Shown here: one piece after another, positions 1 through 43,631 of the stretch
How the letters are laid out: every line of letters begins with the position of its first letter
How positions within the stretch are numbered: the stretch's first letter is position 1
Source: an uncultured Candidatus Saccharibacteria bacterium
GTDB lineage: Bacteria; Patescibacteriota; Minisyncoccia; Phycocordibacterales; UBA9973
Assembly: GCA_964591445.1 (NCBI GenBank)
Contig: CAZQAW010000002.1
Span: 67,394 to 131,393, forward strand
Length of the DNA: 64,000 bases
Reading direction: 5' to 3'
Notes under the pieces: model-generated
Told to the model about the DNA's origin: nothing
What the model saw: only the letters and a program-made list of their open reading frames with translations
The model's database searches: none
Position numbers and translations under genes: made by a program

Positions 1-879
1 GTGATGCGGCGAGCGGAACGGCGGAGCCGTGACAAGCTCCCTGGCGAGGTTTCCTGCAATAGAATAAATTCCCGTTGCTTCCAAAATTTCTGGAAGTGTC
101 AACCGCGGAAGTATGCCGGCAAATGCTTTTGCGAGCATCGTCTTTCCGGTTCCCGGCGGGCCCGACATGACGACATTGTGCCCGCCGGCTGCGGCAATTT
201 CGAGTCCGCGTTTTGCGGCTTCTTGTCCACGAATATCAGAAAAGTCTGTCGTGTGGTCTTCTTCGGCATACGTTATTTCTGTTTGCGGTTGCTTTTGTAT
301 TTTTCCTCCCGTGCCAAGGGGAGGTGTCAGCCCTTTGGCTGACGGAGGGGTGTGTGGTTTTTCGTCCAAATGTTCTATGACTTCCTTCAAATAGTTCACT
401 CCGAAAATCGTAATGCCATCAATCAGTGCTGCTTCAGCTGCATTTTCCATCGGCACGTAGACTTCTTGAAATCCTTTTGCTTTCGCTTCGCGCACAAGTG
501 GCAATGTTCCTTTGATCGGTTTTATTTCTCCGTTCAATGCAAGCTCGCCCAAGAAAAGTTTTTTCTCCGGTTCAAAATGTATATCGCCAAGCGAAAGCAG
601 ATATCCGAGCGCAATCGCCAAGTCAAAATATGGACCTTCTTTTTTCAAATCCGCCGGCGAAAGCGAAACAACTATTTTCTGATTCTGACTTTTAGGCGAA
701 GTGTAACCAGAATTTTTAAGCGCGCCGGAAACGCGGTCTTTCGATTCATCGACTGCTTTGTCTGGAAGCCCAACCACGGTAAAAGCATGAAGCGAATTCT
801 TGGTGATATCCGCTTCGATAGTGACGATTGCACCTTTCAGTGCATGAGTTTGTGCGCTGTAGACTCTTGAGAAGGACAT
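1..879 (-). CDS. comM: YifB/ComM family Mg-chelatase-like AAA+ ATPase (N-terminal part; C-terminus lies beyond the window start)
   Basis: Minus-strand translation from ATG at 879 reads MSFSRVYSAQTHALKGAIVTIEADITK...GLPDKAVDESKDRV...VVMSGPPGTGKTMLAKAFAGILP (Walker A). The listed + strand ORFs at 1..870 are antisense artefacts. Confidence 0.8.
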   Translation of the reverse strand, partial: MSFSRVYSAQTHALKGAIVTIEADITKNSLHAFTVVGLPDKAVDESKDRVSGALKNSGYTSPKSQNQKIVVSLSPADLKKEGPYFDLAIALGYLLSLGDIHFEPEKKLFLGELALNGEIKPIKGTLPLVREAKAKGFQEVYVPMENAAEAALIDGITIFGVNYLKEVIEHLDEKPHTPPSAKGLTPPLGTGGKIQKQPQTEITYAEEDHTTDFSDIRGQEAAKRGLEIAAAGGHNVVMSGPPGTGKTMLAKAFAGILPRLTLPEILEATGIYSIAGNLARELVTAPPFRSPHH

Positions 880-3085: not shown

Positions 3086-3133
3086 AATATATTTTTAAAT
3101 GTAATATAAAGAAAAATATAAAACAAAAAAGAA

Positions 3134-3790: not shown

Positions 3791-3805
3791 ATAATAAATG
3801 CGGTA

Positions 3806-3845
3806 TCAAAAAATCCTGAAACTCAAGTGAGTTTCAGGATTTTTA
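3806..3845. terminator. bidirectional rho-independent terminator
   Basis: A-run, perfect 13-bp stem ATCCTGAAACTCA/TGAGTTTCAGGAT, T-run; sits between convergent genes. Confidence 0.65.
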
Positions 3846-4676: not shown

Positions 4677-4805
4677 ATAGAGACTATATCACTTTTAAAC
4701 TAATAGTTTAATTTATATTAATAATAAGTAATAAAATGGAAACTTTGTCAAATAACAGTTATACTTCCTTTAAATAAACACATTCACAATTTAAAAAATA
4801 AAACT

Positions 4806-5237: not shown

Positions 5238-5238
5238 A

Positions 5239-5514
5239 ATGAAAAAAGATAGAACTCATGATGAAGAATCCTTTATCATTGATATAAAATTTCACATTGT
5301 TTTCTTTATTCTAGCTGCCGTGAGTGTTTTTGCAGATACGAATGTTGGTTGGCATTTCGGAAATCATTTTGTAAATGAACATATCGTAATTTCCTGTATT
5401 ATTTTTGTTGTATATGCAATGGGTTGGTTTGCTACATTTATATATGGTTTATTTTGCGCAAGACCGGTTATTCTTTTCGGCAGTGTAGTATTATTCATTT
5501 ATTGTCAGTTTTAA
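5239..5514 (+). CDS. small membrane protein
   Basis: 91 aa, three hydrophobic segments; start abuts the stop of the upstream gene. Confidence 0.4.
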   Translation: MKKDRTHDEESFIIDIKFHIVFFILAAVSVFADTNVGWHFGNHFVNEHIVISCIIFVVYAMGWFATFIYGLFCARPVILFGSVVLFIYCQF

Positions 5515-5516
5515 TC

Positions 5517-5552
5517 AAAAATCCCATCACGAGTTGTGATGGGATTTTTTTT
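5517..5552. terminator. bidirectional rho-independent terminator
   Basis: ATCCCATCACGAGTTGTGATGGGAT stem-loop flanked by A and T runs. Confidence 0.65.
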
Positions 5553-5556
5553 AAAA

Positions 5557-6642
5557 TTACTTAAGAATTTTTAGCAAAGGATCAAACCGGAAAAGTTTAT
5601 TTCGACTTCGCTGTCCAACTTCAGAAATGTAGTTTTTTTCCTGTAAATTCTTTATGAGACTTGTTGCGGTAAGGTAGCTTGAACATTTTGTTGAATCCTG
5701 AACCATTTTAATAGTGAAAATCGGAGATTCGAAGAGCATATCAATAAATGGAATTATATATGGAGATTTATTAGTACTGTATTCTTTTCTCACCTTGTCA
5801 TATAAGGAATATATTTCTTCTATGATTTTTTGTGTTTCGTTGAGTTGTTCAGAAACAGAACGAAGGAAAAATTTTAACCACTCCTCGATATCATTACCCT
5901 CATCCACTGCATGCAATTTATCGATGTATTCATCTTTGTGGTCTTCAAAATAACCACTCAAATAGAGAATCGGGGCAGAAAGTCGTTGGTGTTTATGTAA
6001 GACTAATGGAATAAGTAGTCTACCAATACGCCCGTTTCCGTCATCAAAAGGGTGGATTGCTTCAAATTGATAATGCATCACGCCAGCTTTTATAAGTGCA
6101 TTTTCTTTGCCATTATTTATATAGTCAAACAGATTATCGACACCGCTTCTTACGTGTATTGGTTCTGGTGGAACATAAATTGCTTTCTCGATTGGATCTC
6201 CTGCACGTTCTGCAATCCATACTTGGCCTTCACGAAATTTCCCTAGTAAACCTTTATGGCGAACATCTTTCAATAGTATCCCGTGTAAGCTCTCAATGAG
6301 ATGACTACTTACACCTCTGCCTTTCTGAATTTCTTTTACTGCAAGCCCCATTGCTGTTCGGTAGTTTATGACTTCCTGAATGTCTGCGTGTTTAGTTTTT
6401 TCACCAGCATCAAATAGGAAAACATCCGCGACATCGCTTTGTGTTCCTTCGATCTTAGAACTCATAACGGCTTCTTTCGCTGTAAGAGGTGAAATAAGAA
6501 GTGAAGAGTTTTGTAATTTTTTTTGAGAACCTTCAAGTAAGCCAAGGGCGTACTCGGCGGTTGATAGTTCTTCTGCAAATTTGTTATAGTCTAACTTCAG
6601 CCCTTTAGGGTCCAAGTTTTTTACGATTGCTGGTTTTTTCAT
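5557..6642 (-). CDS. Fic/DOC family protein (AMPylator-type) with N-terminal inhibitory motif
   Basis: Canonical Fic motif HPFDDGNGRIGRLL; upstream SKIEGT matches the (S/T)xxxE(G/N) auto-inhibitory helix of class II Fic proteins. Confidence 0.85.
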   Translation of the reverse strand: MKKPAIVKNLDPKGLKLDYNKFAEELSTAEYALGLLEGSQKKLQNSSLLISPLTAKEAVMSSKIEGTQSDVADVFLFDAGEKTKHADIQEVINYRTAMGLAVKEIQKGRGVSSHLIESLHGILLKDVRHKGLLGKFREGQVWIAERAGDPIEKAIYVPPEPIHVRSGVDNLFDYINNGKENALIKAGVMHYQFEAIHPFDDGNGRIGRLLIPLVLHKHQRLSAPILYLSGYFEDHKDEYIDKLHAVDEGNDIEEWLKFFLRSVSEQLNETQKIIEEIYSLYDKVRKEYSTNKSPYIIPFIDMLFESPIFTIKMVQDSTKCSSYLTATSLIKNLQEKNYISEVGQRSRNKLFRFDPLLKILK

Positions 6643-6741
6643 ACAATTACAGTGTATTATGTGTACATAAGAATGTCAAGTTTCTTATGTATAAGTATTT
6701 TTTGTACATAACACCTTATATACATCGTAAGAAGAATTTTA

Positions 6742-9277: not shown

Positions 9278-10213
9278 TTAAAGGTGCATAAACAAATACA
9301 AGTTGATCGTATTTATTTTCTCCTCCATTACTACTTCGTTCTGCCAACCGATAGCTACAAGGCCGGAAAAGGCAAACGGTGTCTTTCCAAAATCTTTCGA
9401 TTTGAAATTTTTGATAATCCCCCACTCTCCGCGCGGCCTGTCTCCGCTATTTAAGTTGAAGCCCATATCAGAATAAATATCAAAGCGATTTGTTTTAATC
9501 ACAAAGAAATTTGAAAAGATATAGTCTTTCGGAAGAGCCTCGCCTGCTTTCGGAACTTTTGTGCCGACCGCAATTGTTGTGAAATGCTTGGTGTCGAATT
9601 TCGCAGTAGCGCTCCAGTTATTTTCTTCAACCGAACCGCCCACACTTACGTCTCCAAATTTTATTTTTCCGGCAAGCATCGGATTGTTATTATTCGCGCT
9701 GTTTACTGTTCCGGAAACCGATATTTCAGTAAGGCCTGACACGTAGTTGATCTTCCCACCTGTACGAACTCCGGGAAGAAGTGCTTCGGTAAAAGTTTCG
9801 AACTGCCCGTCTCCGGTTGCCGGATTGGGACGAAATTCTGCAGTAGCGCTTGGCAGATGTCCACCAGAAAGTTTCCATTTTTTGGAAATATTCCACGTAA
9901 GGTACGTTGCAGAAAGCGTGTAAGGATTTCCCACGTTTTCATTGTGGAAAATTCCCCACGCATTAATCGCAAGCGTACGTTTTTTGTTGGTGATTTTCAA
10001 AATTCCACCTGCGCGCACACTTGCCCATTTGTAGAGCGAGCCAGAATCTGCGTTGAATTTTGCGGCAGTAAGCACTCCTGCGTATGGAGTGATTTCCATT
10101 AAAGCTGAAGTATCTTTCAACCCGTCAAATTTTGATGTCGTATCTTGTTCCTGAGCGTTTACATGGATTGCAAGAGTAAGGCAGAGTGCTGCCAAAGCAG
10201 TAAGTTCTTTCAT
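9278..10213 (-). CDS. secreted beta-strand-rich protein (possible porin-like beta-barrel; function unknown)
   Basis: Signal peptide MKELTALAALCLTLAIHVNA; alternating hydrophobic beta-strand pattern throughout; no enzymatic motif. Confidence 0.5.
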   Translation of the reverse strand: MKELTALAALCLTLAIHVNAQEQDTTSKFDGLKDTSALMEITPYAGVLTAAKFNADSGSLYKWASVRAGGILKITNKKRTLAINAWGIFHNENVGNPYTLSATYLTWNISKKWKLSGGHLPSATAEFRPNPATGDGQFETFTEALLPGVRTGGKINYVSGLTEISVSGTVNSANNNNPMLAGKIKFGDVSVGGSVEENNWSATAKFDTKHFTTIAVGTKVPKAGEALPKDYIFSNFFVIKTNRFDIYSDMGFNLNSGDRPRGEWGIIKNFKSKDFGKTPFAFSGLVAIGWQNEVVMEEKINTINLYLFMHL

Positions 10214-10909: not shown

Positions 10910-11176
10910 TTAAGCTTTTATCTTCTTTACGATCTCGGCATGAGCTTCCTTGTTCTTTCGTTCAAGATATTTCAAATGCTTTCGTCGGTCTGCCACCATC
11001 TTGATGAGTCCGCGGCGAGAGTGGTTGTCCTTCTTGTGCGTCTTCAAATGGCTTGCAAGTTCGTCGATCCGAGCGCTTAGGATACCGATCTGCGCTTGAG
11101 AAGAGCCGGTGTCTTTGTCGTGAATCTGAGACTTTTTGATAACTGCTTGTTTTTTCTTTGTCGTAAGCATGGGCAT
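10910..11176 (-). CDS. rpsO: 30S ribosomal protein S15
   Basis: 88 aa, MPMLTTKKKQAVIKK...GILSARIDELASHLKTHKKDNHSRRGLIKMVADRRKHLKYL. Confidence 0.9.
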   Translation of the reverse strand: MPMLTTKKKQAVIKKSQIHDKDTGSSQAQIGILSARIDELASHLKTHKKDNHSRRGLIKMVADRRKHLKYLERKNKEAHAEIVKKIKA

Positions 11177-11206
11177 ATAATAGCATACTTATTTGTACAT
11201 TGCAAG

Positions 11207-11318
11207 CCCCTTCTCCTGAGGTAGGAGAAGGTGGCCTTTAGGCCGGATGAGGTATGTGTATAATCCAATACCTCACCCCGAACCTTCGGTCGACCCTCTC
11301 CTACTTTAGGAGAGGGAG
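11207..11318. repeat. family-A palindromic interspersed element, full copy (copy 1)
   Basis: 112 bp with hairpin-forming ends (CTTCTCCTGAGGTAGGAGAAG ... CCCTCTCCTACTTTAGGAGAGGG) and internal GAGGTAT..ATACCTC inverted segment; its exact reverse complement occurs at 26008..26119. Confidence 0.85.
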
Positions 11319-11344
11319 GAATTCAAAAATGCTATACTCTCTAC

Positions 11345-12370
11345 ATGTCACAAATCGACACGCTCAAGCGCCAATTTCTCGAATATTTGGAAATCGAAAA
11401 AGGTTCAAGCATCCGCACGGTAGAAAATTACCAGCGCTATCTCGAGCGTTTTTTTGAACAAGCGAAAATCGCGAATGCTTCTGACATTACCGACGACGCG
11501 GTGCGAGATTTTCGTTTGTGGCTCAACCGCCAATACGCAAAACATCAGAAAAGCAATCGCTTGCCGGGGAACACTATTTCCAAGCGCACGCAAAACTACT
11601 ATATGATCGCGCTCCGCATGTTCCTCAAATTTTTGATGAAACGCGAAATCAAATCTTTGCCAGCAGACCGCATCGAACTTGCAAAAACGACCGAGCGGCA
11701 CCTTGATCTCATTTCCAAAGACGAGCTCAACCGTTTGCTTGCAGCGCCCAAAGGCACCGACTTGAAATCGCTACGCGACAAAGCGATTTTGGAATTACTT
11801 TTTTCTACCGGGCTTCGCGTGTCGGAACTTTGTTCGCTCGGAAGTGATTTGGATGTGAACCGCGACGAATTCTCTATCCGCGGAAAAGGTGGCAAAGTGC
11901 GCGTAGTGTTTCTTTCCGACGATGCAAAAAATGCGGTGCGTGCGTATATGAAAGCCCGCAAAGATATGTCTGAAGCGTTGTTCGTGCAAGTTTCTGATAT
12001 GGAAGGCGGAAAAAAGAAAAAAGAAAAAGAGACACACCTCTCCGTCAGCAAAGCCGACACCTCTCCTTCAAAAGGGGAGGAAAACTTAAAGAAGAAAAAA
12101 AATAAAACTACTCTTGAGGCCGTTGCTCTCACTCGCCGTTCGGTCGAACGTATTGTGAAGCATTATGCAGTCGTTGCAGGCATTTCCAAAAAAGTAACTC
12201 CGCACGTCATCCGTCACAGCTTCGCGACAGATTTGCTGGGCAACGGCGCAGATATCCGCAGTGTGCAAGTCATGCTCGGCCACGCGAACATTGCAACCAC
12301 ACAAATATATACGCATGTCACAGACAGCCAGCTCCGAGAGATCCACAAAAAGTTTCATGGGAAAAAATAA
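11345..12370 (+). CDS. tyrosine site-specific recombinase, XerC/XerD-like
   Basis: N-terminal core-binding domain; C-terminal VTPHVIRHSFATDLLGNGADIRSVQVMLGHANIATTQIYTHV (R..H..R..Y catalytic set). Contains a Lys/Glu-rich insertion of about 45 aa at 11985..12125. Confidence 0.8.
   Translation: MSQIDTLKRQFLEYLEIEKGSSIRTVENYQRYLERFFEQAKIANASDITDDAVRDFRLWLNRQYAKHQKSNRLPGNTISKRTQNYYMIALRMFLKFLMKREIKSLPADRIELAKTTERHLDLISKDELNRLLAAPKGTDLKSLRDKAILELLFSTGLRVSELCSLGSDLDVNRDEFSIRGKGGKVRVVFLSDDAKNAVRAYMKARKDMSEALFVQVSDMEGGKKKKEKETHLSVSKADTSPSKGEENLKKKKNKTTLEAVALTRRSVERIVKHYAVVAGISKKVTPHVIRHSFATDLLGNGADIRSVQVMLGHANIATTQIYTHVTDSQLREIHKKFHGKK
12037..12110. repeat. family-B palindromic element copy embedded in frame in the recombinase gene
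   Basis: CACCTCTCCGTCAGCAAAGCCGACACCTCTCCTTCAAAAGGGGAGGAAAAC is about 80% identical to 37143..37200; it encodes the extra loop SVSKADTSPSKGEEN... absent from canonical XerC/D. Confidence 0.5.
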
Positions 12371-12418
12371 AAAGCAGAACTATACGTTCTGCTTTTTATG
12401 CAGTTATGAAATTTTGGA

Positions 12419-13198
12419 TTAAGCACCTGCTCCTTGCAAATCATCCGCAGGTTTCTCTTCGGTTTTGAAGTAAGGAAGTCCTTCAAAAAAATTGAGAATT
12501 AGAATCCCAGTAATAAATACAAAAGTCATTATTTGTATGGTAAACGGGAATTCTTTAACATAAAACCACCCACCGCCAATCAATAAGAAGTATGCTGTCA
12601 CAACTACACCCAGTCCTTTGTAAACACTACTTCTTAATTCAGTTTCTTGTGCAACAGCCAGAGCTTTTTCTTCTTCGTCTGTGGTTGTGCTAGCTTTTTC
12701 AAGAAATGCGTTACATTTTTTTATGGACCCTTGCAGTTGTATGCCAAACAGAAGCGCTATTATACAATTAAGCGCAAAAAACACTATTGTAGCAGTCAAA
12801 TGTTCGTGTACATCTATAATTGAATGTGAAAAGCATATGCAGACCAACCATAGACTAAGAACAATGATAAGAAGGGGTCGCATTTGTTTTTCAAAAAGAT
12901 AAGGTTGTTTACTCTTACCTGTTCTCTCACCTGCTACCCACAGAGCTAGTCCTAATAGTAGTTTAACGCCTACTCCCAGAATAAAAACAGGATGTGGTTT
13001 AAGCGATCTAAACGGTACCCATTCCGGGTAAAGTACTGCAAAAGGAACAACAATCGCTCCAATGATAATAGAGATAAGGTACAAGAAAATTCTTTTTGTG
13101 TTGTACTCACTGTGCGTAAAGTACAGGTAAACAGTGATTCCGAGGGCTACGAGCGAAATAGTTTCCGCTAGTATGTAAGTGCTTGTGATTTTTTCCAT
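12419..13198 (-). CDS. hypothetical polytopic membrane protein
   Basis: 259 aa with about 7 hydrophobic helices. Confidence 0.5.
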   Translation of the reverse strand: MEKITSTYILAETISLVALGITVYLYFTHSEYNTKRIFLYLISIIIGAIVVPFAVLYPEWVPFRSLKPHPVFILGVGVKLLLGLALWVAGERTGKSKQPYLFEKQMRPLLIIVLSLWLVCICFSHSIIDVHEHLTATIVFFALNCIIALLFGIQLQGSIKKCNAFLEKASTTTDEEEKALAVAQETELRSSVYKGLGVVVTAYFLLIGGGWFYVKEFPFTIQIMTFVFITGILILNFFEGLPYFKTEEKPADDLQGAGA

Positions 13199-13653
13199 AA
13201 TTAACTTCGTTTTGTTTTGTGTGTGATTTTGTTTTGTTGTTTGAATTATTTTGTTTTAAAATGTGCGAAATTCCATTGTACCCAAAACAATAGTTTTGTC
13301 AATTTTGTTTTTGGGTAAAAATAAAAAGCAAACCTACAGAGTTTGCTTTTTAATCATTAAGCAGCTTCAATTTATTCGAGGTATGGCACCTCCCGGGCAC
13401 AAAATTCTTCAGTCTGTTTTCCTTTAGGAGCATCTTCGCTTTTTACAAATGAACCATTCAATGATTCGGCATTCACACCTGTGGTGTGCGGAGAAATAAA
13501 CTTTTTCATCGTATTTTGGTATTTGTTTTCGACTACAGAGTCCCCTGCTGTCGATTCCGGGTAATGTACTTTGTTTGATTACAACTATACTCCTATCGAT
13601 TTTTCGTGTCAAACAAAAAAGTGCATAACTTTGGGGTATGTTATTATGGAAAT

Positions 13654-14427: not shown

Positions 14428-14525
14428 AATGACCCCAAAGTTATCCCCAGAAAGCTTGACTTTTGTATTTTTTCTGATATAATGCATTTAAATAACGTTT
14501 CGTCTCACCTTTAAAAATAAATACT

Positions 14526-18024: not shown

Positions 18025-18480
18025 ATGCCAAAGGTTTTTACTTCAAAAAGCCAAAAAATAGGGGAGTTGGGTGAAGAAATTGCCTGTAAATATCTTATTT
18101 CTAAAGGATTTAGAGTTTTGGAACGCAATTATACAAAGAAGTGGGGAGAAATAGACATAATTGCAGAACGTGATAGGAAAATCTACTTTATAGAGGTAAA
18201 AGCGGTTTCATGTGTAACATTGCCGGAGGTTTCTCAGTCAGACAATACCTCACCCCGGGCCTCTGGCCGACACTCTCCTACCTTAGGAGAGGGAAGAAGC
18301 CTTTTCCGTCCAGAAGAAAACATGCATCCAATGAAAGTCCGCAAGTTCTTAAGGACAATTCAAACGTACTTGATCCAAAGGAAAATAGAAGGGGAGTGGC
18401 AAGCAGATCTGTATTGCGTGTATATCCAGCTTGAAAGCCGCAAGGCAAGGGTGACGAAAATAGAAAACATTATTGGTTGA
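18025..18480 (+). CDS. yraN: YraN/UPF0102 family endonuclease-like protein carrying an in-frame repeat-derived insertion
   Basis: KYLISKGFRVLERNYTKKWGEIDIIAERDRKIYFIEVKA ... DLYCVYIQL matches the YraN core; about 30 extra residues (SQSDNTSPRASGRHSPTLGEGRSLF) are encoded by a family-A repeat fragment. Confidence 0.7.
   Translation: MPKVFTSKSQKIGELGEEIACKYLISKGFRVLERNYTKKWGEIDIIAERDRKIYFIEVKAVSCVTLPEVSQSDNTSPRASGRHSPTLGEGRSLFRPEENMHPMKVRKFLRTIQTYLIQRKIEGEWQADLYCVYIQLESRKARVTKIENIIG
18224..18302. repeat. family-A palindromic element, partial copy inside the yraN reading frame
   Basis: CAATACCTCACCCCG...CCGACACTCTCCTACCTTAGGAGAGGGAAG shares the ACCTCACCCCG and CTCTCCTACnTTAGGAGAGGG blocks with 11207..11318. 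Confidence 0.6.
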
Positions 18481-18564
18481 CAAAAATATATTTTTGTATA
18501 TAATTTTCTTAAATAATCCAACAAGTAACAAACAAAACAATTAAACTATTTAAACTTTGACACA

Positions 18565-24922: not shown

Positions 24923-25978
24923 TTATTTCTGATCTTCCAAGAATTTGAAGACGAGCTCGTTGGTCATGATGCTTTCGATGTAGACTCTTGCGCGGATCGG
25001 GTCTGCGCCTTTGTAATGTTCTACGAGGTGGCCGACTTGCGTCTCAACTTCTTTTTCGTCCGGCTTCAAGTTTTCTTTGACGCTTATTGCATGAAGAATG
25101 AGCTCGAGCTTTGCGCGCTTTTCTGCATCCGGAGCGATTTCTTTTTTGATATCGTCTTCGGTTTTGTTCAAGTGTTTCAAATAATCTTCGTATTTCATGC
25201 CCGCTTGCTCGATGTCAGTTTTCACTTTATAGATCGTCTTGTCGATTTCAGAATTGATGATGACTTGCGGAACGTCTATTTCAGAAGTTTTCACGAGTTC
25301 TTCGACAAGCTGCGCTCGAGATTTGCTTTGCGCTTGCTGAGCTTTTTCAAGCGCGATGTTTTCTTTCATTTTTGCTTTGAATTCCTCGACAGTTTTGAAC
25401 GGTCCAAAACCTTGCACGTATTCATCATTGAGTTCTGGCAAGTCTTCGTCTTTGAGTGCGTCATGCGGAGCGTGTTCGCCTGGTTTATCATTCTTATGAA
25501 ATTCGTTGTGCTGTCGCATGCGGCGAACTTCGAGTATTGCGTCTTCAACTTCTTTATCTGTCACTTCGCTTGCGATTTCTTTTTTATTTTCTTTCGCAGC
25601 TTTTTTATAATCGCCAAGTTTCACTTCCGGCATCACCGCTGTGGTGATTTTGAAACCAAGTGGGTTGTCTTGCGCAAGTTTGGTGATCATGATTTCCGGT
25701 CGGCCAATCGCGTCAATTTTATTTTCTTCAAGAATTTTTGGGTACGCTTCGCTCATTGCAAGTTCGGCCATTTCTTCAAGAATTGCAGAAGGCTGGACTT
25801 TGCTTTCAAGCACGCTTGTTGGTACTTTGCCTTTGCGGAAGCCGTCGAGCTCTACGTCTTTGCCGATAATTTCAAGCGCTTTTGCACGGTAAGAAGAGAA
25901 TTGCTCAGCGGCAATTTCTCCGGAAATTTCTATTTGGCTTTTGGCTAATTTCTTTATGTCGATATTCATAGTAGCCAT
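24923..25978 (-). CDS. tig: trigger factor lacking the PPIase domain
   Basis: The N-domain signature LDGFRKGKVP and the C-domain block DLPELNDEYVQGFG align with E. coli TF on both sides; the roughly 100-aa FKBP insert is absent (351 aa vs 432). Confidence 0.8.
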   Translation of the reverse strand: MATMNIDIKKLAKSQIEISGEIAAEQFSSYRAKALEIIGKDVELDGFRKGKVPTSVLESKVQPSAILEEMAELAMSEAYPKILEENKIDAIGRPEIMITKLAQDNPLGFKITTAVMPEVKLGDYKKAAKENKKEIASEVTDKEVEDAILEVRRMRQHNEFHKNDKPGEHAPHDALKDEDLPELNDEYVQGFGPFKTVEEFKAKMKENIALEKAQQAQSKSRAQLVEELVKTSEIDVPQVIINSEIDKTIYKVKTDIEQAGMKYEDYLKHLNKTEDDIKKEIAPDAEKRAKLELILHAISVKENLKPDEKEVETQVGHLVEHYKGADPIRARVYIESIMTNELVFKFLEDQK

Positions 25979-26007: not shown

Positions 26008-26119
26008 ATCTCCCTCTCCTAAAGTAGGAGAGGGTCGACCGAAGGTTCGGGGTGAGGTATTGGATTATACACATACCTCATCCGGCCTAAAGGCCACCTT
26101 CTCCTACCTCAGGAGAAGG
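26008..26119. repeat. family-A palindromic interspersed element, full copy (copy 2, inverted relative to copy 1)
   Basis: Exact reverse complement of 11207..11318 over 112 bp (checked base by base). Confidence 0.85.
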
Positions 26120-26125
26120 GGTACC

Positions 26126-26162: not shown

Positions 26163-26465
26163 CTATTCCTCCAAAGAATTCAAATCTGTTTCATTCAAGT
26201 CTTTGTCGATCGAGTCCAAATCGTCGGAATTTGATTGCGAACTTTGGTCGATTGTCGTTGTCGAGTTGATGTTGAGCTGTGAACCACTTTCGTTTGGCAT
26301 TTCGCTTACGTTCATTTCTTCGTTCATCATTTGTGTTTCATGCGGTCGGTTGTACATATAGATGCCACCGATGATAAGCAAAATGACTACAATAATAGAA
26401 CCCACAAGTGCACCCGAACCCTTTTTGTTTCCAGTATTCACAGAACTCATATTGTTGTTTTCCAT
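26163..26465 (-). CDS. small membrane-anchored acidic protein
   Basis: 100 aa; one TM helix (GALVGSIIVVILLIIGGIYMY) then a Ser/Asp/Asn-rich tail. Confidence 0.4.
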   Translation of the reverse strand: MENNNMSSVNTGNKKGSGALVGSIIVVILLIIGGIYMYNRPHETQMMNEEMNVSEMPNESGSQLNINSTTTIDQSSQSNSDDLDSIDKDLNETDLNSLEE

Positions 26466-27202: not shown

Positions 27203-27250
27203 GCCTGTGACTTGCCAAAAACCCTCTCCTGGCTAGGAGAGGGTTAGGGT
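27203..27250 (-). terminator. terminator of ppa built from a family-A-like palindrome
   Basis: AACCCTCTCCTGGCTAGGAGAGGGTT hairpin with a T-run on the minus strand; resembles the CCCTCTCCTAC..TAGGAGAGGG end of family A. Confidence 0.5.
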
Positions 27251-27260
27251 GAGGTTGAGT

Positions 27261-35322: not shown

Positions 35323-35471
35323 TAGAAAAAGTGGAAAATATGATTTGAAATGCCTTGCGCAAGGTCGTCTACAGATGTCTGTCTTACCCGACAGACCCGT
35401 CGGGCCGAGCAGAGCAAAAATTCAGCAGAATTTTATGTCGTGCATTTCAAATCATATTTTCCACTTTTTCT
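35323..35471. repeat. 30-bp perfect inverted repeat flanking an 89-nt structured core in the HIT/recJ divergent intergenic region
   Basis: AGAAAAAGTGGAAAATATGATTTGAAATGC (35323..35352) and its exact reverse complement (35442..35471). The core contains the palindrome CCTTGCGCAAGG and the stem GTCTGTC-TTACCC-GACAGAC; the right arm ends 4 nt before the recJ ATG. Confidence 0.65.
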
Positions 35472-35474
35472 TAT

Positions 35475-37151
35475 ATGAAACCTATCCCAGACGAACTATC
35501 TACATATACGCCGCTACTCGGCCGACTGCTTACAAACCGCGACATTGTCACTTTCAAAGACGCAGAACATTTTTTGAATCCTTCTTTTACGCGCGACTTG
35601 GCAGACCCGTTCGGTATTCACGATATGGAAAAGGCGACGGTGCGGATTTACGAAGCAATGGAAGCGAAAGAAAAAATTGTGGTTTTTGCGGATTATGATT
35701 GCGACGGCATTCCAGGTGCGGTGATTATGCATGACTTTTTTACAAAGCTTGGTTATGAGAACTTTGAAATATACATTCCCGACAGACATCACGAAGGATA
35801 TGGCTTGAGTATTCCCGCGATAGAAAAGTTTCGTGACAACGAAGTAAAATTAATTATTACCATCGATCTTGGAACTTCAAACGTCGAAGAAATCGCGCAA
35901 GCGGAAGCGTTTGGAATTGATGTTATAGTCACTGATCACCATTTACCGAAAACAGATGTGCCGCATGCGTACGCAATTGTGAATCCAAAACTAAGTCCTG
36001 ATTATAACGATATCATGCTCTGCGGTTCCGGAGTTGTATTTCGTCTTGTGCAAGCATTCCTTACAAAGTATCGTGAATACTACAAAGTCCAAGACGGATG
36101 GGAAAAATGGTTGCTCGACATGGCCGGCCTCGCAACGCTTTCAGACATGGTGCCGCTGGTCAAAGAAAACCGCGTGCTCGCATACTACGGCATGATGGTG
36201 TTGAAAAAAAGTCCACGACCTGGTTTGCTTCGCTTGCTTTATAAAATGAAAGTCGATCCGCGTACAATGACCGAAGACGATATTGCCTTTATGCTCACTC
36301 CGCGCATCAATGCTGCTTCGCGCATGGACAATCCGCTTCGCGCTTTCGAACTTCTTTCTACTCGCGATAGTGTGAAAGCGGGTGCACTTGCTGACCATTT
36401 GACAAACATAAATGACGAACGAAAAACACTGGTTGCAACGATCATGAAAGAAGCGCATCACACTTTGCGCGAGAGAGAAGAGAAGCATGTGATCGTCATT
36501 GGCAACCCAAAATGGCGCGTTGGTGTGCTTGGGCTTGTCGCTTCGAAGATTATGGAAGAATATAAAAAGCCGACATTTGTGTGGGGGCTTGAAGGTGCGA
36601 GCGTGATCAAAGGTTCGTGTCGAAGCGACGGCAGTGTGAACTTGGTGTCGCTTATGGCGCACATTCCAAAAGATTCACTTCTCGAATTCGGCGGGCATGA
36701 ACTTGCCGGAGGATTTTCTGTGAGTCACGAAAGCGTGCATTTTCTCGAAGAGCATCTTAGTGCAAGTTACACCGAAATAAAAAAAGAAGGAGCGATTGTT
36801 TCTGCAAATCCTATCGACATGCATTTGACGCTCGACGATGTGACGATGAAGAATTACAAAGACATTGCAAAGCTCGCACCGTTTGGTGTTGGGAATCCGA
36901 AGCCGACATTTCTGTTTGAAAATGTGATGATCCAAAACGTCAAAGAATTTGGGAAAGAGCAAAACCACCTTGAACTGTGTTTTGAAAATTCAAACAGCAG
37001 GCCGATCAAAGCGATAGCATTCTTTAAAACGCGCGCGTCCTACGGCCGCGCGCTTCAAAAAGGCGTTGCCATAAATCTTGTAGCAACCTTTGAACTTTCC
37101 AACTTTGCCGGCAGGGAAGAGCTGCGGCTACGCATAGTTGATATTTTATAA
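35475..37151 (+). CDS. recJ: single-stranded-DNA-specific exonuclease RecJ
   Basis: DHH motifs (DYDCDGIPGAVIMHDF; VTDHH) and DHHA1 domain (GGHELAGGFSV). Start at ATG 35475. Confidence 0.85.
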   Translation: MKPIPDELSTYTPLLGRLLTNRDIVTFKDAEHFLNPSFTRDLADPFGIHDMEKATVRIYEAMEAKEKIVVFADYDCDGIPGAVIMHDFFTKLGYENFEIYIPDRHHEGYGLSIPAIEKFRDNEVKLIITIDLGTSNVEEIAQAEAFGIDVIVTDHHLPKTDVPHAYAIVNPKLSPDYNDIMLCGSGVVFRLVQAFLTKYREYYKVQDGWEKWLLDMAGLATLSDMVPLVKENRVLAYYGMMVLKKSPRPGLLRLLYKMKVDPRTMTEDDIAFMLTPRINAASRMDNPLRAFELLSTRDSVKAGALADHLTNINDERKTLVATIMKEAHHTLREREEKHVIVIGNPKWRVGVLGLVASKIMEEYKKPTFVWGLEGASVIKGSCRSDGSVNLVSLMAHIPKDSLLEFGGHELAGGFSVSHESVHFLEEHLSASYTEIKKEGAIVSANPIDMHLTLDDVTMKNYKDIAKLAPFGVGNPKPTFLFENVMIQNVKEFGKEQNHLELCFENSNSRPIKAIAFFKTRASYGRALQKGVAINLVATFELSNFAGREELRLRIVDIL

Positions 37152-37200
37152 CCCCACCCCTCCGTCTCGGAATACCGAGCCACCTCCCCTTTAAAAGGGG
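37143..37200. repeat. family-B palindromic element copy downstream of recJ
   Basis: ACCCCACCCCTCCGTCTCGGAATACCGAGCCACCTCCCCTTTAAAAGGGGAGGAAAACACG; related to 12037..12110; hairpins CTCGG/CCGAG and CCTCCCC/GGGGAGG. Confidence 0.5.
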
Positions 37201-37300
37201 AGGAAAACACGAGTTCTTGACTTTTTATACAATATGGTGTAAAGTGTGGTCAAACGAATTTTAAAATAACAAATAATTAAACTAAAACAAATTTACAACA

Positions 37301-38447: not shown

Positions 38448-41400
38448 ATGAAAAAAAATACTTTCCTTGTCGGTTTGAGTGTTGTGGTGGTGTTCGTGCT
38501 CATCTTCAACATTTTCAAAACTGACAGTTTGCGTGGGATCTTGAAGCGTGTCGGCAATCGCGGCCAGCAGGCAGCGGTCAATAGCGTCCCGACGACGATC
38601 CCAGACTATTATTGGCGTTTCGAAGGCGGAATGACTCCAACCAACGGTTCTGGTAACTACCCGGTTACCGGTGGCTCCGTTGCTACTGGCTGTAGCGCAG
38701 CTGGCGGATGCTTAAACACGACTGTTTCAAGCGTTAACGGCACATTCCCAAGCATCGGCAGTGTAAGCAAGCTCTCGTACGAGTTCTTGTTTAAAGCTGG
38801 CCCACGCTTTGAAACGACTATTTTCTTCGATGATCGACCTTCTCAGACAGCATTCTCTGCCATGCTTGAATGGCCTGCCTCCGGTCTTACTATTCCGAAG
38901 CTCTGGTTCCAGGTCAACGGAGACCGACTTTCTGTCGATCTTACTGGTATTGGCCAGAAACGATGGGGGTATTTTGCCGATGGCAATTTCCACCACATGG
39001 TCTTTACTTATGATGGCGCGTCAGGAAAGCGCACTATCTACGTTGATGGAGTAAAATTTGCTGAAAAAACTGGCACTACAGGCAACGTAAACCTAAGTTC
39101 AAACAACCTTTACTCTGGAGGTCTTACGAGCTATGAACGTTTGAGTGGCTCTATAGATGAAGTCGCTATCTATAAAAATGTAGCTATCGACCCTCTTCTC
39201 GTCGCCCAGCACTACCAAGATGCGGTAGTAAACGGCGTTGCATACAATACAACAAACACCACAGTAGCAAACGTGCCAGCTGCACCTGCTTCAACTGCTG
39301 GTATCGATTCTTCTGAATATCCAGTTGGCTACCCTACTCCAGGATCTATGGCTTCTGCTACCACACAGTTGAAGTCATATCCGCTTCCTCGATACAAGCC
39401 AGGAAACACTCTTATGAAAAACGTTGACTGGATAGACGGTATGTATTTTGGAGGACGCTTCCAACCGGGCGTGTCTGATCCTCAAGCCGTGACGAACAGT
39501 ACAACTATCAAAGACGAACTTGCAAAGAACTGGAACTATGCGGTGATGATCAACTGGTCAAGCGGTAATGAATTCGTTCCTGCATGGAAGACGCTTATTA
39601 ACAACAATCCAAGTTACCAGTTTGATTTCACGACGCTTCGAGCGCAAGTCAACGGTGGTACAAAAATTACTAACCAAACTCTTCCAAATGATCGTTATTT
39701 CCAAAACGCATCAGGATCAGCTTTGGTCCCCGCTGGTTGCGGAACAGCGTCAGGTACAAAATATTGGCGTGCTGTTCCAAATTTTGAAGCAGACTATATG
39801 AGCGATGGTACTTCTGCGGCAGGGTGGGTAGCTGGCGCATTGTCAGGACTCAATGCCGACCGAAAGGTTCGTATCTTGAACGAAAACGGAGAAGTACATT
39901 TGTACTACACGAATGGTTGCGGATCTCAAGACCCTCTTATCGAATCAAGCCGTGCAGCTTATAACAGCGCAAACGGTACAAGCTTGACCACAAAGCAATA
40001 TATCGGCGAACAATATCGTCGAAGTATGCAGAACGAATATTTTACTCCAATCAAGAATGCAAGCCCGTCACGACTTACTGACACAAAGTTCACTTTGTAC
40101 CAGGTGTCTGGACGTGGAGAATATGCTTACGATTGGTCCACTGCTCGAAAAATCAACACCCCAATTAATGGCCAATACTACTCAACACTCGATTTCTACC
40201 AAGGTTTCTATGGAGCGACTGGACCAAACAACTGGGCAAACGGTGTTGGGGCAGGTAATGGACTCGGAGTATTTCTTGAAGCTCGCAAGAACGAAATTGC
40301 GCTTGGAGATAAACTCTTCTCTCCATTCGTAGCAGCAGGTTGGATGCATTCGAATATACATCCTTATACAAATACAACGTATTCTCAGACAGACGTCCGA
40401 CCTGGACAATGGCTTGGAATGCTCAAGCTTTTGGGTGCTATCGGTGCCGAATTTTATTACACAGGTTACTTTAACGAAGGTGGTAACTACCAGAACTGTA
40501 CGACATCTGGTGGTACATGCCCTGCTCTACCACAGACATATGCATGGCAAGCAGTCATGCCTTCATACGCACAAGGCGCAATGAGCCGAGCTGAAGATTT
40601 GCTTCGAGGCACACTCATTACAAACACTGCGGGTAACTTGCCGGCTGTGTACACTAACCCAACATCCAACGATGGCTTCTTGCTTGCAACAGGAGACAAG
40701 ACAGTTCCCGCATTCGCTCGACAAAGCGGTAGTAAATATTTGATCACCGCCGCGGTCATGCGCAACCACAATATGCAAGAGTCTGCCCAAGAACAGACAA
40801 AGAACGTGAATGTCACTGTCGGTGGAGACAACCTCCGTATCCAAGCTCGTCAACAAGGAAGCATGTACGTGTATGACAAATCAAACACGGCGGCGCCGAT
40901 CTTTTACCAGATCGACGGATGGCATGAACGTGCTCACCCAAGCTACTGGACTGGCGACTTTAGTATCGAAGCTGAAATGCCTGACTCTGGTACAGCACAG
41001 CTCGTCACATACGGCCCAGGTGTTGCTTCAAAAGATTTTACTCCTGGCAACTACACGACAGCCGTCAAGAATGCTTCAGGAACTCTTTCATACAATTTCC
41101 AACCTCGAAACGCTGCATCAAGTGGTACAGAAACGCGTTACCTCTGGTTCCGCGCAAACAACAACTCTACGACAGCTGCTTCAACGGGAAGCTTTGCTGT
41201 AGATTCTGGTGCTGCACAAACAGTAAGCTTGCCAGCAAATAGCGGCAACGTTTGGTGCAACAAGAACTCTGCTGGCCAAGTCATGGCGTTCTCTGTGAGT
41301 CAAAATGCAGACCATCAGTTGAAGTACACTGCATCAAATGCAAACCTTTATGTTGATCAGTTCGTCCTTACGACAAATCCAAACCTCGGACTTGGTACAT

Positions 41401-43631
41401 GTACCGGCGGCGCGGGAACTTCCGACACGATTCTACCCAGTATATCCATCACCTCGCCAACTACTAGCGCGACCTACTCTACTTCCACTCCTTCTATTAC
41501 TCTCTCTGGTAGCGCTTCTGACAATGTGGCTGTTACGTCGGTCGTCGCGGTAAACGCAGCAGCAGGCGCATCCGCAATCAGTATCAGCGGTACGACATCT
41601 TGGACCGGAAGTGTGTCACTTGTGTCCGGCTTGAACAGTCTTGTTGTGACAGCATACGATGCAGCTGGAAACCAAAAGCAAGCAACGCTTGATGTTACGT
41701 ACACACCAGCAGACACTGTTCTTCCAAACGTTTCTATTGTGGCACCGGTTGCTTCTGGTGGAACATATCTTGCAACTTCTAACTCCCTCACCACTCTTGC
41801 CGGCACCTCTTCCGACAACGTCGGAGTCACCCAAGTAACATGGGTCAACTCACTCGGCGGCTCTGGTACAGCAACAGGAACAACAAGCTGGTCTGTGCCT
41901 TCGATTGCGCTTTCCAACGGCTCTAACGTGATTACGGTCACAGCCAAAGATGCGGCAAACAATACGAAGACTGCAAGTATCACAGTAGTTCGAGATACGA
42001 CAGCCCCAACAGTTTCTGTCACAGTTCCTACAGCTGGTGCATCATTTACTGGCACAAGCCCTATCACTTTGACTGCAAATGCGACTGACAACGTAGCTAT
42101 CGACCATGTCGACTTCTACTATGGCTCAAACCAATTCATCGGCGGCGCGACAACTGTCACCGGTGGCAACTACACTCGCACATGGACACCAAGCACAAGC
42201 GGGTCTATCGGCCTTTACGCTATCGCATATGACACATCTGGAAATCCAAAGACTTCTGCAACAGTTACAATCTCTGTCAGTCTTTCAACTCCGGACACTA
42301 TCGCTCCGACAGTACAAATGTCTGCTCCGGCAGCTGGTGCAACAGTGTCTGGCACAGCGGTCACTCTTGGTGCAGTTGCAAGTGACAACACGGGTGTATC
42401 TTCTGTAGCATTCTACTTGGATGGAGTGGCGATCTCTGGCGCAATCGATACGACAGGCAACAATCCAAACACGAATGGCACCGGCATCACCGGCCAACTC
42501 TATGAAGCGGTATGGAATACATCTTCAGTTTCAAATGGAACACATACACTTTCTGCTCGAGCAACAGATGCGGCTGGTAATATCAAAAATTCATCGACAG
42601 TTTCGATCACGGTTTCAAATGTAGTCGGCCAACCAGATCTTATAGTTACAGATCTCAGCTGGACTCCGGCATCACCAGTTCTTGGTTCAGTTATTACATT
42701 TAGTGCAGTGGTGAAAAATGTAGGAAATGCAGCAACACCTGCAGGAAAAGTGACAAGCGTTACTTTCTACAACAACGAAGGCACTGTCATCGGTTGTGGT
42801 GACTCTTATACTCAGTCCATCGCAGCTGGCGCAAGCATTACGGTGACAGCTGGACAGACTTCATCTGTCACAAGCAACTGGTGTAACACTACTCTTGGCG
42901 GACAAATTCCTCCAACGTGGATTGCTACAGGTAGTGCATTTGAAGCACGAGCTGAAGTTGACGACATCAACCGTATTACTGAAAGCAATGAGACAAACAA
43001 CATGTTGACTACTGTATATAATCCTCCGGCAGATACGACTGCTCCAACTGTTGCTATCACTTCTCCGACAACGTCTGCAACATACAGTTCAACAAGTGCT
43101 ACACTTGCGAACCTTGCCGGCACCTCTTCCGACAACGTCGGAGTCACCCAAGTAACATGGGTCAACTCACTCGGCGGCTCTGGTACAGCAACAGGAACAA
43201 CAAGCTGGTCTGTGCCTTCGATTGCGCTGCTTAGTGGTACAAATGTGATTACAATCACTGCTTATGATGCATCAGGAAATACTGCAACCAAGCAGCTTGC
43301 AGTGTCATACGCAGTTGCATCAAGCGATACAGTTGCACCAACGGTCACTATTACGAGCCCGGCTAACAATGCCAATGTCTCAAACACTTCTAATACGACA
43401 TTTGTTGCCACAGCAACGGACAATGTCGGCGTAACTGAAGTGAAATTTTTTCTCGGGGGCACTACAACGGCAGCGAAATGCACTCTTTCTTCTCCTACTA
43501 CTGCACCTAGTACTTACACATGTTCGTTCAAAGTACCGTCCGTCTTCTTCGGATGGGGAACTTCGACCATAACAGTACAGGCAAAAGACGCAGCAGGAAA
43601 TACGAAAGTGACAAGCATCAAAGTTCGCTAA
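38448..43631 (+). CDS. giant (1727 aa) membrane-anchored adhesin-like protein: LamG/ConA-like domain, about 600-aa unassigned central domain, about 7 Ig-like repeats and a CARDB-like domain
   Basis: N-terminal TM; LamG-like block FHHMVFTYDGASGKRTIYVDGVKF...GSIDEVAIYK; repeated DTxAPTVxITSP...SDNVGVTxV Ig-like modules; CARDB-like PDLIVTDLSWTPASPVLGSVITFSAVVKNVGNAATP. Confidence 0.75.
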   Translation: MKKNTFLVGLSVVVVFVLIFNIFKTDSLRGILKRVGNRGQQAAVNSVPTTIPDYYWRFEGGMTPTNGSGNYPVTGGSVATGCSAAGGCLNTTVSSVNGTFPSIGSVSKLSYEFLFKAGPRFETTIFFDDRPSQTAFSAMLEWPASGLTIPKLWFQVNGDRLSVDLTGIGQKRWGYFADGNFHHMVFTYDGASGKRTIYVDGVKFAEKTGTTGNVNLSSNNLYSGGLTSYERLSGSIDEVAIYKNVAIDPLLVAQHYQDAVVNGVAYNTTNTTVANVPAAPASTAGIDSSEYPVGYPTPGSMASATTQLKSYPLPRYKPGNTLMKNVDWIDGMYFGGRFQPGVSDPQAVTNSTTIKDELAKNWNYAVMINWSSGNEFVPAWKTLINNNPSYQFDFTTLRAQVNGGTKITNQTLPNDRYFQNASGSALVPAGCGTASGTKYWRAVPNFEADYMSDGTSAAGWVAGALSGLNADRKVRILNENGEVHLYYTNGCGSQDPLIESSRAAYNSANGTSLTTKQYIGEQYRRSMQNEYFTPIKNASPSRLTDTKFTLYQVSGRGEYAYDWSTARKINTPINGQYYSTLDFYQGFYGATGPNNWANGVGAGNGLGVFLEARKNEIALGDKLFSPFVAAGWMHSNIHPYTNTTYSQTDVRPGQWLGMLKLLGAIGAEFYYTGYFNEGGNYQNCTTSGGTCPALPQTYAWQAVMPSYAQGAMSRAEDLLRGTLITNTAGNLPAVYTNPTSNDGFLLATGDKTVPAFARQSGSKYLITAAVMRNHNMQESAQEQTKNVNVTVGGDNLRIQARQQGSMYVYDKSNTAAPIFYQIDGWHERAHPSYWTGDFSIEAEMPDSGTAQLVTYGPGVASKDFTPGNYTTAVKNASGTLSYNFQPRNAASSGTETRYLWFRANNNSTTAASTGSFAVDSGAAQTVSLPANSGNVWCNKNSAGQVMAFSVSQNADHQLKYTASNANLYVDQFVLTTNPNLGLGTCTGGAGTSDTILPSISITSPTTSATYSTSTPSITLSGSASDNVAVTSVVAVNAAAGASAISISGTTSWTGSVSLVSGLNSLVVTAYDAAGNQKQATLDVTYTPADTVLPNVSIVAPVASGGTYLATSNSLTTLAGTSSDNVGVTQVTWVNSLGGSGTATGTTSWSVPSIALSNGSNVITVTAKDAANNTKTASITVVRDTTAPTVSVTVPTAGASFTGTSPITLTANATDNVAIDHVDFYYGSNQFIGGATTVTGGNYTRTWTPSTSGSIGLYAIAYDTSGNPKTSATVTISVSLSTPDTIAPTVQMSAPAAGATVSGTAVTLGAVASDNTGVSSVAFYLDGVAISGAIDTTGNNPNTNGTGITGQLYEAVWNTSSVSNGTHTLSARATDAAGNIKNSSTVSITVSNVVGQPDLIVTDLSWTPASPVLGSVITFSAVVKNVGNAATPAGKVTSVTFYNNEGTVIGCGDSYTQSIAAGASITVTAGQTSSVTSNWCNTTLGGQIPPTWIATGSAFEARAEVDDINRITESNETNNMLTTVYNPPADTTAPTVAITSPTTSATYSSTSATLANLAGTSSDNVGVTQVTWVNSLGGSGTATGTTSWSVPSIALLSGTNVITITAYDASGNTATKQLAVSYAVASSDTVAPTVTITSPANNANVSNTSNTTFVATATDNVGVTEVKFFLGGTTTAAKCTLSSPTTAPSTYTCSFKVPSVFFGWGTSTITVQAKDAAGNTKVTSIKVR
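41796..41911 (+). repeat. intragenic 116-nt exact duplication, copy 1
   Basis: CTTGCCGGCACCTCTTCCGACAACGTCGGAGTCACCCAAG...TCGATTGCGCT identical to 43113..43228 (encodes LAGTSSDNVGVTQVTWVNSLGGSGTATGTTSWSVPSIAL). Confidence 0.85.
43113..43228 (+). repeat. intragenic 116-nt exact duplication, copy 2
   Basis: Identical to 41796..41911 at nucleotide level. Confidence 0.85.

Follow-up and report, generated by a model that had tools for sequence, protein, structure and literature searches.

Short repeats of the BoxC or PIT (potential intrastrand triplex) type have been known in Escherichia coli since the 1990s, and we know of no function or mode of spread that has been found for them. The motif concerned, 5'-CCCTCNCCC N3-6 GGGNGAGGG N3 GGGNGAGGG, was named BoxC, then the PIT element and then TM_ECO (Holder et al. 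2015, PMC4666352, citing Bachellier et al. and Hoyne/Maher 2000). TM_ECO is present in 23 copies in E. coli K-12, where it is always intergenic and part of the copies lie in palindromic pairs, and 262 proteobacterial genomes hold 3610 copies; its presence goes along with local genomic variability, PIT elements of E. coli have no promoter or terminator activity, and neither a transposase nor a function is known for them (PMC4666352). Here we describe repeats of this kind in a 64,000-nt stretch of DNA (the window) from an uncultured Candidatus Saccharibacteria bacterium of the Patescibacteria (assembly GCA_964591445.1, contig CAZQAW010000002.1, positions 67,394 to 131,393 of the forward strand), in which a 112-nt element occurs as two exactly inverted copies. 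With a probability of roughly 0.6, we interpret this element as a tail-to-tail inverted dimer of motifs of the BoxC/PIT/TM_ECO intrastrand-triplex type, belonging to a dispersed, non-coding and non-autonomous family that has recently expanded in this Patescibacteria lineage.

A repeat search of the window recovered the two copies at 11207-11318 and 26010-26121, 100% complementary over 112 nt and separated by a gap of 14,691 nt. A perfect 112-mer within 64 kb cannot be of chance origin. An earlier reading of the bare letters (the original prediction) had reported this perfect match 14.7 kb apart, and only its second interval, 26008..26119, has to be shifted by 2 nt. The hairpin-forming termini that it described (CTTCTCCT/AGGAGAAG and CCCTCTCCTA/TAGGAGAGGG) and the internal GAGGTAT/ATACCTC inverted segment are both present on direct reading. 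Folding of the element as RNA, the check proposed there, gave a minimum free energy of -66 kcal/mol (z = -7.9) for the plus strand and of -63.8 kcal/mol (z = -6.1) for the minus strand, computed with Watson-Crick pairing only and with z relative to shuffles.

The element is built on a three-block grammar, in which a pyrimidine block (Y1) is followed by a complementary purine block (R1), forming a hairpin, and then by a third purine block (R2) that mirrors the second. In both dimer halves R2 is the mirror of R1, and 9 of 9 triads are of the purine-motif type (G.G-C, A.A-T, T.A-T); judged by this triad rule, the purine strand would be predicted to form a triplex. One triad covaries in all three blocks between the halves, with T-A.A in the left half standing against C-G.G in the right, whose block order on the minus strand is CCCTCTCCTA, AAG, TAGGAGAGGG, TCGACCgaaGGTtCG and GGGTGAGGTAT. 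The R2 blocks of the two halves pair with each other, and this pairing is what had been described as the internal hairpin. In place of the usual 3 nt, the second loop of the dimer halves and of several monomers consists of a covarying mini-hairpin of 12-15 nt.

The same succession of a C-rich block, a complementary G-rich block and a mirrored second G-rich block defines BoxC/PIT/TM_ECO. The 112-mer is collinear with the E. coli BoxC dimer between hrpB and mrcB (L235:147-233), both being arranged tail-to-tail as [Y1-R1-R2]-spacer-[Y2-Y1-R1]. A single unit of the window, situated behind ppa, reads CCCTCTCC-TGGCTA-GGAGAGGG-TTA-GGGTGAGG. This comes very near to type A of E. coli; its third block has the characteristic T, its second loop is 'TTA', and the unit fits the TM_ECO consensus except at the block ends. 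As with TM_ECO, the units in the window are dispersed and multi-copy, vary in presence and absence, and have no transposase in view. Unlike TM_ECO, they reside in a host from the Patescibacteria (the Candidate Phyla Radiation, CPR) with 43% G+C (43.5% in the window, where the best homologues of the proteins are found in Patescibacteria, namely Nomurabacteria, Paceibacterota and Minisyncoccia), their stems end in TA/AT rather than C/G, and they occur in frame in comM, xerD and yraN, whereas the K-12 copies are always intergenic. What is new relative to BoxC/PIT is best filed as the host phylum, the expanded and covarying second loop, the 112-nt dimer and the in-frame coding copies.

To enumerate the family we used a triplex-motif finder that looks for an 8-bp pyrimidine/purine hairpin with a mirrored block at most 24 nt away, with at most one mismatch in each. 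It returned eight units in the window, with 0-1 mismatch to the mirror rule, and none in 20 local shuffles. These are the four dimer halves and the single units at 305-351, 12036-12080, 27222-27254 and 37156-37203; a ninth, degenerate unit lies at 18226-18298, giving nine units at seven loci in 64 kb, with three of the seven loci in frame inside genes. All 8-bp Y/R hairpins of the window are family members with a mirrored block on one side. The four shorter relatives that had been noticed from the letters all proved to be true family members; a fifth, at 305-351, had been overlooked, as had the location of three relatives inside open reading frames (ORFs). The Y1 block of the unit in yraN is slightly degenerate in the window (CACTCTCC) and perfect in a 97% relative, L001. 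The unit in xerD is common to the window and the relative L234. Its structure is perfect in L234, and in the window it shows three transitions, of which two fall at mirrored positions of the third and hairpin blocks; this is suggestive but anecdotal.

The mirror rule was tested further on Y/R hairpins lying outside matches to the search pattern (given below), with direct repeats and permuted blocks as controls. A perfect mirror block accompanied 37 of 118 genome loci (direct repeat 8; permuted control 6.2) and 61 of 164 viral loci (18 and 8.0, respectively), i.e. it was 5-8 times commoner than with permuted blocks and 3-5 times commoner than a direct repeat. The C-run lengths of the third (Y2) and hairpin (Y1) blocks are likewise correlated (r = 0.64). 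Across the collected units the length of the second loop is bimodal, being either 2-5 nt or a 12-17-nt mini-hairpin. When 26 long-loop units, taken from the window and from other phyla, were aligned, both-sided compensatory changes appeared in each of the four pairs of the mini-hairpin; 93% of the cells were paired, and covariation scored 0.287, as against 0.067 after shuffling (reached in 0 of 500) and at most 0.084 in slid controls.

Comparison with relatives points to a recent gain of the dimers. The rpsO-xerD spacer measures 168 nt both in the window and in L123, a JGI contig with an identical element. L234, with a 97% identical XerD and ~89% nucleotide identity over 4 kb, has an empty spacer of 51 nt, and L231-233 (72% identity) have one of 54 nt, the site being empty in L231. 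The inserted segment comprises the element plus GAATTCAAAAA, placed exactly between the rpsO -35 and the xerD -10. The site upstream of tig is filled in L226 (95% Tig), the contig of which starts within the element, and it is empty in L228 and L229 (76%) and in L230 (70%), where only the terminator and the promoter are present. Because the orthologous sites are empty in close relatives, both dimer copies are recent gains, in accord with recent mobility, one of the two readings (the other being strong constraint) that had been drawn from their perfect identity. The L227 tig site, 128 nt longer, resembles a filled one, but the extra length is a probable scaffolding or misassembly artefact: positions 9790-9935 of that contig (YANG21-1...scaffold_16) hold an N-run and a G+C-rich insert of ~130 nt of unrelated sequence inside the terminator hairpin, missing in L228 and L229 with identical Tig. 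The yraN gene of L002 (84% identical protein) lacks ~60 nt at the position of the unit, and the sister species (L227-L233) holds no units in ~34 kb of syntenic DNA spanning five of the sites of the window. No target-site duplication was detected at either copy (flanks TGCAAG and GAATTC at one, TTGGTA and ATTCGC at the other), nor by comparison with the empty site; no shared target sequence or tetranucleotide was seen beside the two dimer sites; and no transposase was found among the ~20 window ORFs scanned. A metagenome scan with the dimer core (GGCCGGATGAGGT..ACCTCACCCCG) returned the orthologous rpsO-xerD locus of L123 as its sole match.

The original prediction placed the two copies in the 5' leaders of rpsO and tig. 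A promoter scan predicted an rpsO promoter whose -35 box directly adjoins copy 1 at its left end, and the -10 boxes of rpsO, xerD and tig are conserved in relatives lacking the element (L234 and L231 for rpsO). These positions, together with the conserved -10 boxes, place both copies upstream of the predicted promoters of leaderless-looking genes, and therefore outside 5' leaders. The related idea of a structured leader RNA fared no better: the Rfam check that had been proposed gave no match, and the element is missing from orthologous loci. At the gathering threshold the whole window yields only four tRNAs, and around the element an E-value search brought up nothing but spurious miRNA and PyrR-type matches of at most 19.7 bits, far under the thresholds. 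A cis-regulatory leader RNA, such as an S15/rpsO leader, is thus refuted by the predicted promoter positions and the empty orthologous sites, besides having no Rfam match. As an observation in its own right, rpsO, xerD and tig (11170-11205, 11330-11347 and 25967-25987) all have a TG-extended -10 only 6-9 nt from the start codon, retained in relatives, which suggests that leaderless mRNAs are a common mode in this organism. The coordinates of the units and of the neighboring features are collected in Table 1.

Table 1. Coordinates of the dimer copies, single units and adjacent genes and signals in the 64-kb window.
Feature	Position	Strand	Description
Dimer copy 1	11207..11318	+	112 nt, between divergent rpsO and xerD-like gene
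Copy 1 left unit, Y1	11209-11217	+	CCTTCTCCT
Copy 1 left unit, first loop	11218-11222	+	
Copy 1 left unit, R1	11223-11231	+	AGGAGAAGG
Copy 1 left unit, mini-hairpin	11233-11244	+	GGCCtttaGGCC, preceded by T
Copy 1 left unit, R2	11245-11253	+	GGATGAGGT
Copy 1 central spacer	11254-11269		
Copy 1 right unit, Y2	11271-11279		CCTCACCCC; grammar of left unit on opposite strand
Copy 1 right unit, mini-hairpin	11279-11292		
Copy 1 right unit, Y1	11294-11303		CCCTCTCCTA
Copy 1 right unit, loop	11304-11306		
Copy 1 right unit, R1	11307-11316		TAGGAGAGGG
Dimer copy 2	26010..26121	-	exact reverse complement of copy 1; units 26076-26119 and 26012-26057
Single unit, subfamily B	305..351	-	in frame in comM (minus-strand ORF running past window start); encodes HTPPSAKGLTPPLGTGG
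Single unit, subfamily B	12036..12080	+	ACCTCTCC / mini-hairpin / CCTCTCCT-loop-AGGGGAGG; in frame in xerD-like gene 11345..12370
Single unit, long-loop type	18226..18298	+	78% identical to dimer right half; in frame in yraN (18025..18480); encodes NTSPRASGRHSPTLGEGRS
Single unit, short-loop type	27222..27254	-	CCTCACCC-TAA-CCCTCTCC-TAGCCA-GGAGAGGG then TTTTT; 6 nt past ppa stop
Single unit, subfamily B	37156..37203	+	5 nt past recJ stop (ORF 35355..37151), upstream of promoter of next gene
rpsO	10910..11176	-	diverges from xerD-like gene
Predicted rpsO promoter	11177..11205	-	-35 TTGCAA (11205-11200), 17-nt spacer, TG-extended -10 TATTAT ending at 11177 beside start codon
xerD-like recombinase gene	11345..12370	+	
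Predicted xerD extended -10	11330..11338	+	TGCTATACT; 6 nt before ATG at 11345; 11 nt downstream of copy 1
tig	24923..25978	-	
Predicted tig extended -10	25987-25979	-	TGCTAAAGT; 9 nt before probable ATG
Terminator after ORF 26163..26465 (-)	26122-26155		copy 2 lies between it and tig extended -10

The three in-frame units of the window all occupy variable linkers of their proteins. That in yraN falls in a length-variable loop between VKAVSCVTLP and RPEENMHP and amounts to ~20 extra residues relative to P0003; that in xerD belongs to a variable linker rich in Lys, which exceeds that of E. coli XerD by ~36 residues; and that in comM lies where the Lon-like domain is linked to the AAA+ domain, with 18 extra residues relative to Legionella ComM (8rxd). 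In other CPR genomes units interrupt Dus, MurG, LigA, HtpX and FemAB (as identified by Pfam), and 7 of 16 lie in long ORFs as against 55% of random positions, while in other phyla and viral contigs only 14-17% lie in ORFs as against 65-74% of random positions. The yraN loop that holds the unit encodes, in many CPR relatives, a palindrome 'VSRET' = GTTTCACGTGAAACA, perfect as TGTTACACGTGTAACA in L002 (~545-575) and degenerate in the window as GGTTTCATGTGTAACA (18204-18219); this palindrome is presumably parS-like.

A similar habit is attributed to Rickettsia palindromic elements (RPE), which Ogata and colleagues reportedly described in 2000 as small palindromic repeats lying both between genes and in frame in housekeeping genes of the reduced-genome Rickettsia. 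Like RPE, the units of the window add short peptides in frame in tolerant regions of protein genes; unlike RPE, which are not known outside Rickettsia and are not known to have a mirrored third block, the motif spans many phyla and phages. No RPE family was matched in the Rfam searches, which included no dedicated RPE model. The small dispersed repeats (SDR) of heterocystous cyanobacteria, from the work of Elhai and colleagues in 2008, are likewise said to be very small hairpin-forming mobile repeats found in intergenic DNA and genes. Correia/NEMIS MITEs (short for miniature inverted-repeat transposable elements) resemble the dimer in size, inverted termini and placement near promoters, but the dimer has no target-site duplication and no insertion sequence (IS) parent among the ~20 window ORFs scanned, and its units also disperse as monomers. 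The attribution to MITE/REP/Correia/RPE-type elements in the original prediction thus needs to be divided: a dispersed family of small palindromic repeats is indeed present, and with three units in frame in genes the RPE analogy is apt, but membership in the classical MITE or Correia families is not supported. With REP/BIME/REPIN (PMC3733652, PMC3116915) the family shares GC-rich hairpin units, frequent inverted dimers with the capacity to fold into larger structures, a location mostly downstream of genes with few intragenic copies, and the lack of a target-site duplication; REPs are defined by an unpaired GTAG or CGTC tag, and the GTAG at both terminal hairpins of the dimer overlaps loop and stem, the defining feature here being the mirrored third block. 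A literature search combining CPR with MITE, REP or RPE found no paper joining them.

Beyond the window, the pattern CCTCACCC N3-22 CTCTCCT N3-7 AGGAGAG was searched in one-genome-per-species contigs and in IMG/VR. It matched at least 120 loci in the genome contigs, the phyla among the matches listed being Cyanobacteria, Bacteroidota, Ignavibacteria, Chloroflexota, Armatimonadota, many CPR lineages, Verrucomicrobia, Nitrospirota and a few Proteobacteria; many of the cross-phylum matches listed are in Nostoc, Rivularia and Scytonema. IMG/VR contributed 102 loci. One of its contigs (L128, IMGVR_UViG_3300048592_001291) is a Mu-like phage fragment that encodes terminase, Mu portal, Mu F and a virion morphogenesis protein. 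Five triplex-motif units (1895-7237) lie within its 7.3 kb, all on the same strand, and two or three are located in ORFs (Mu F and the terminase linker). A phage copy was also seen directly after a capsid gene. A plasmid search with the 112-mer gave weak partial matches to rhizobial repeats (E 0.02-1) covering R1, the mini-hairpin and R2; the rhizobial megaplasmid repeat agrees with the left half at 26 of 29 nt, a match that takes in the mini-hairpin, and the two have the segment GGAGAAGGTGGCCnnnAGGCCGGATGAGG in common. This repeat, exemplified by GGGGAGAAGGTGGCCGGCAGGCCGGATGAGGGG on Sinorhizobium meliloti pSINMEB02 (L236, 1217585-1217627), is itself multi-copy, occurring in ~100 rhizobial plasmid records and in up to 26 places per record.

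We infer that such units would spread by copy-and-paste, being recognised or propagated as a folded single strand (hairpin or triplex DNA), perhaps during replication or repair or by an enzyme acting in trans that leaves no target-site duplication. Selection would then spare insertions only where they fall in intergenic spacers or, in frame, in tolerant loops of proteins, and a few monomers, such as that after ppa, may have taken on the role of 3'-end or terminator hairpins. The two dimer copies, situated upstream of promoters, are probably neutral or nearly so. Several points weigh against the interpretation as a mobile triplex-motif family. No mobilising enzyme was identified in the ~20 window ORFs scanned, nor is one known for E. 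coli BoxC, and since neither a target-site duplication nor a common target is present, there is no demonstration of transposition in the strict sense; the copying could also have gone by way of gene conversion or ectopic recombination. The E. coli motif forms a triplex in vitro as single-stranded DNA, and none was detected in vivo (PMC4666352). The dimer halves and subfamily B, with a second loop of 13-19 nt, fall outside the published N3 of TM_ECO and have variant blocks (CCTTCTCC, CCTCCCCT) relative to its consensus. The mirror symmetry is partly confounded with subfamily ancestry, and the collection scans fixed much of the block sequence. Finally, the copy counts pertain to the 64-kb window and short contigs.

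Among the alternatives, the element could be a structure selected by the host and recruited repeatedly as an intrinsic terminator, a 3'-end mRNA stabiliser or an insulator. The unit 6 nt past the ppa stop ends in TTTTT and stands where the sister species has an ordinary terminator hairpin, another (37156-37203) lies 5 nt past the recJ stop, the phage copy is right behind its capsid gene, units are strongly depleted from ORFs outside the CPR, and the structural covariation shows selection on the fold. The monomers after ppa and recJ may serve as terminators or insulators. As an account of the whole family we nevertheless regard it as unlikely: the dimer copies lie upstream of promoters, with copy 2 already preceded by a good terminator, three units are within ORFs, the orthologous sites of close relatives work without the element, and PIT elements lack promoter and terminator activity in E. 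coli (PMC4666352). Moreover, the terminator scan flagged neither the ppa unit nor the terminator upstream of copy 2, though both read as a stem plus T-run, so both are called terminator-like by inspection only. A more specific version of the favored mobile-repeat interpretation is that a RAYT or an IS200/IS605-type HUH (Y1) single-strand transposase moves the units as REP/REPIN-like elements. The inverted-dimer layout recalls REPINs, the missing target-site duplication is expected of Y1 transposases, a dependence on folded single strands would fit, and a GTAG is found at each terminal hairpin (GAG-GTAG-GAGAAGG, and AAA-GTAG-GAGAGGG on the other strand). However, this GTAG is partly within the stem and loop rather than the unpaired 5' tag of the GTAG REPs (PMC3733652), no RAYT or TnpA gene was seen among the ORFs examined, and the two insertion sites have no common tetranucleotide beside them, making this version quite improbable.

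Derivation as a classical MITE, i.e. an IS deletion derivative with terminal inverted repeats that is cut and pasted by a cognate transposase, appears highly improbable despite the small size, the imperfect 23-nt inverted termini (CCCTTCTCCTGAGGTAGGAGAAGG / CCCTCTCCTAAAGTAGGAGAGGG), the identical copies and the presence/absence polymorphism. There is no target-site duplication at either copy and no transposase among the ORFs examined; half-units and short-loop monomers disperse alone, which implies that the supposed terminal repeats are the units themselves; and it is the three-block grammar, and not the termini as such, that is conserved across copies. The scenario that the original prediction itself named as fatal, in which the pair bound a single composite mobile unit of 14.9 kb as its terminal inverted repeats, might be entertained on the basis that just two full-length copies are present in the window and that they are in inverted orientation. 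The interval between them encodes xerD, an exo/endonuclease-phosphatase, the CCA-adding enzyme, tRNAs, yraN, a SIMPL-family protein, RNase Y, clpP and tig. This conserved housekeeping synteny is found with an identical gene order in L227 and L231, which lack both copies, and copy 1 is missing in L234 though the neighboring genes are 97% identical; the composite-transposon reading has next to no probability and is refuted by this synteny and by the independent presence and absence of the copies.

The window also holds other repeats. Two terminator-like hairpins (12358-12398 and 13312-13352), 80% identical and of the form TGGGnAAAAATAAAAAGC-stem-loop-stem-GCTTTTTA with compensatory stem changes, flank a fast-evolving ORF of unknown nature (12419..13198), the most divergent segment of the window relative to L234. 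A promoter-like family, CTTGAC-N17-TATAAT followed by TTAAATAA, is common to three intergenic regions (14455-14495, 18476-18516 and 49302-49342). At 35324-35471 (+) and 47359-47475 (-) are related 120-150-nt elements, one copy just upstream of recJ, with 30-31-bp perfect or near-perfect closing stems of completely different sequence around a conserved core, CCTTGCGCA(A)GG..GTCGRGCCGAGCAGAGCAAAAATYCASCAGRATTTTATGTCGTGC, that is 89% identical and includes an inner hairpin with a compensatory change; their RNA folds have z = -10.0 and -9.1, and Rfam gave only a spurious miRNA match (29 bits versus a gathering threshold of 211). As it is the core that is conserved and the ends that vary, the reverse of a MITE, they look like an unclassified structured RNA or recombination site. 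The 1727-residue ORF 38448..43631 encodes a repetitive protein of the secreted or surface type, with 'DNVGVT' repeats that are Ig-like; inside it, a 170-nt direct repeat (41796-41965 and 43113-43282) is 88% identical.

The clean filled and empty sites between near-identical genomes date two insertions of the dimer, and the variant with the mini-hairpin, found also in Cyanobacteria, Bacteroidota, Armatimonadota, rhizobia and phage contigs, extends well beyond this host. There are practical consequences as well: the units create 'SP..GE'-type peptides in predicted proteins and break short-read assemblies, as in L226, where a contig starts inside one. In-frame copies are tolerated in housekeeping enzymes of CPR bacteria, and also in at least one Mu-like phage, which may help to explain the many lineage-specific loop insertions in CPR proteins, and the covariation of the third block makes a triplex-type fold as the selected unit a testable idea. 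On a broader and rather doubtful view, which we offer only tentatively, BoxC/PIT-type motifs might constitute a single horizontally spreading, partly phage-borne mobile family across phyla, propagating via single-stranded DNA folded as a hairpin plus third strand and routinely inserting in frame in essential CPR and phage proteins (ComM, XerD, YraN, Dus, MurG, LigA, HtpX, terminase, Mu F) as a source of loop insertions. If this were true, the three-way and mini-hairpin covariation would be the first comparative evidence of in vivo selection on structure beyond the hairpin.

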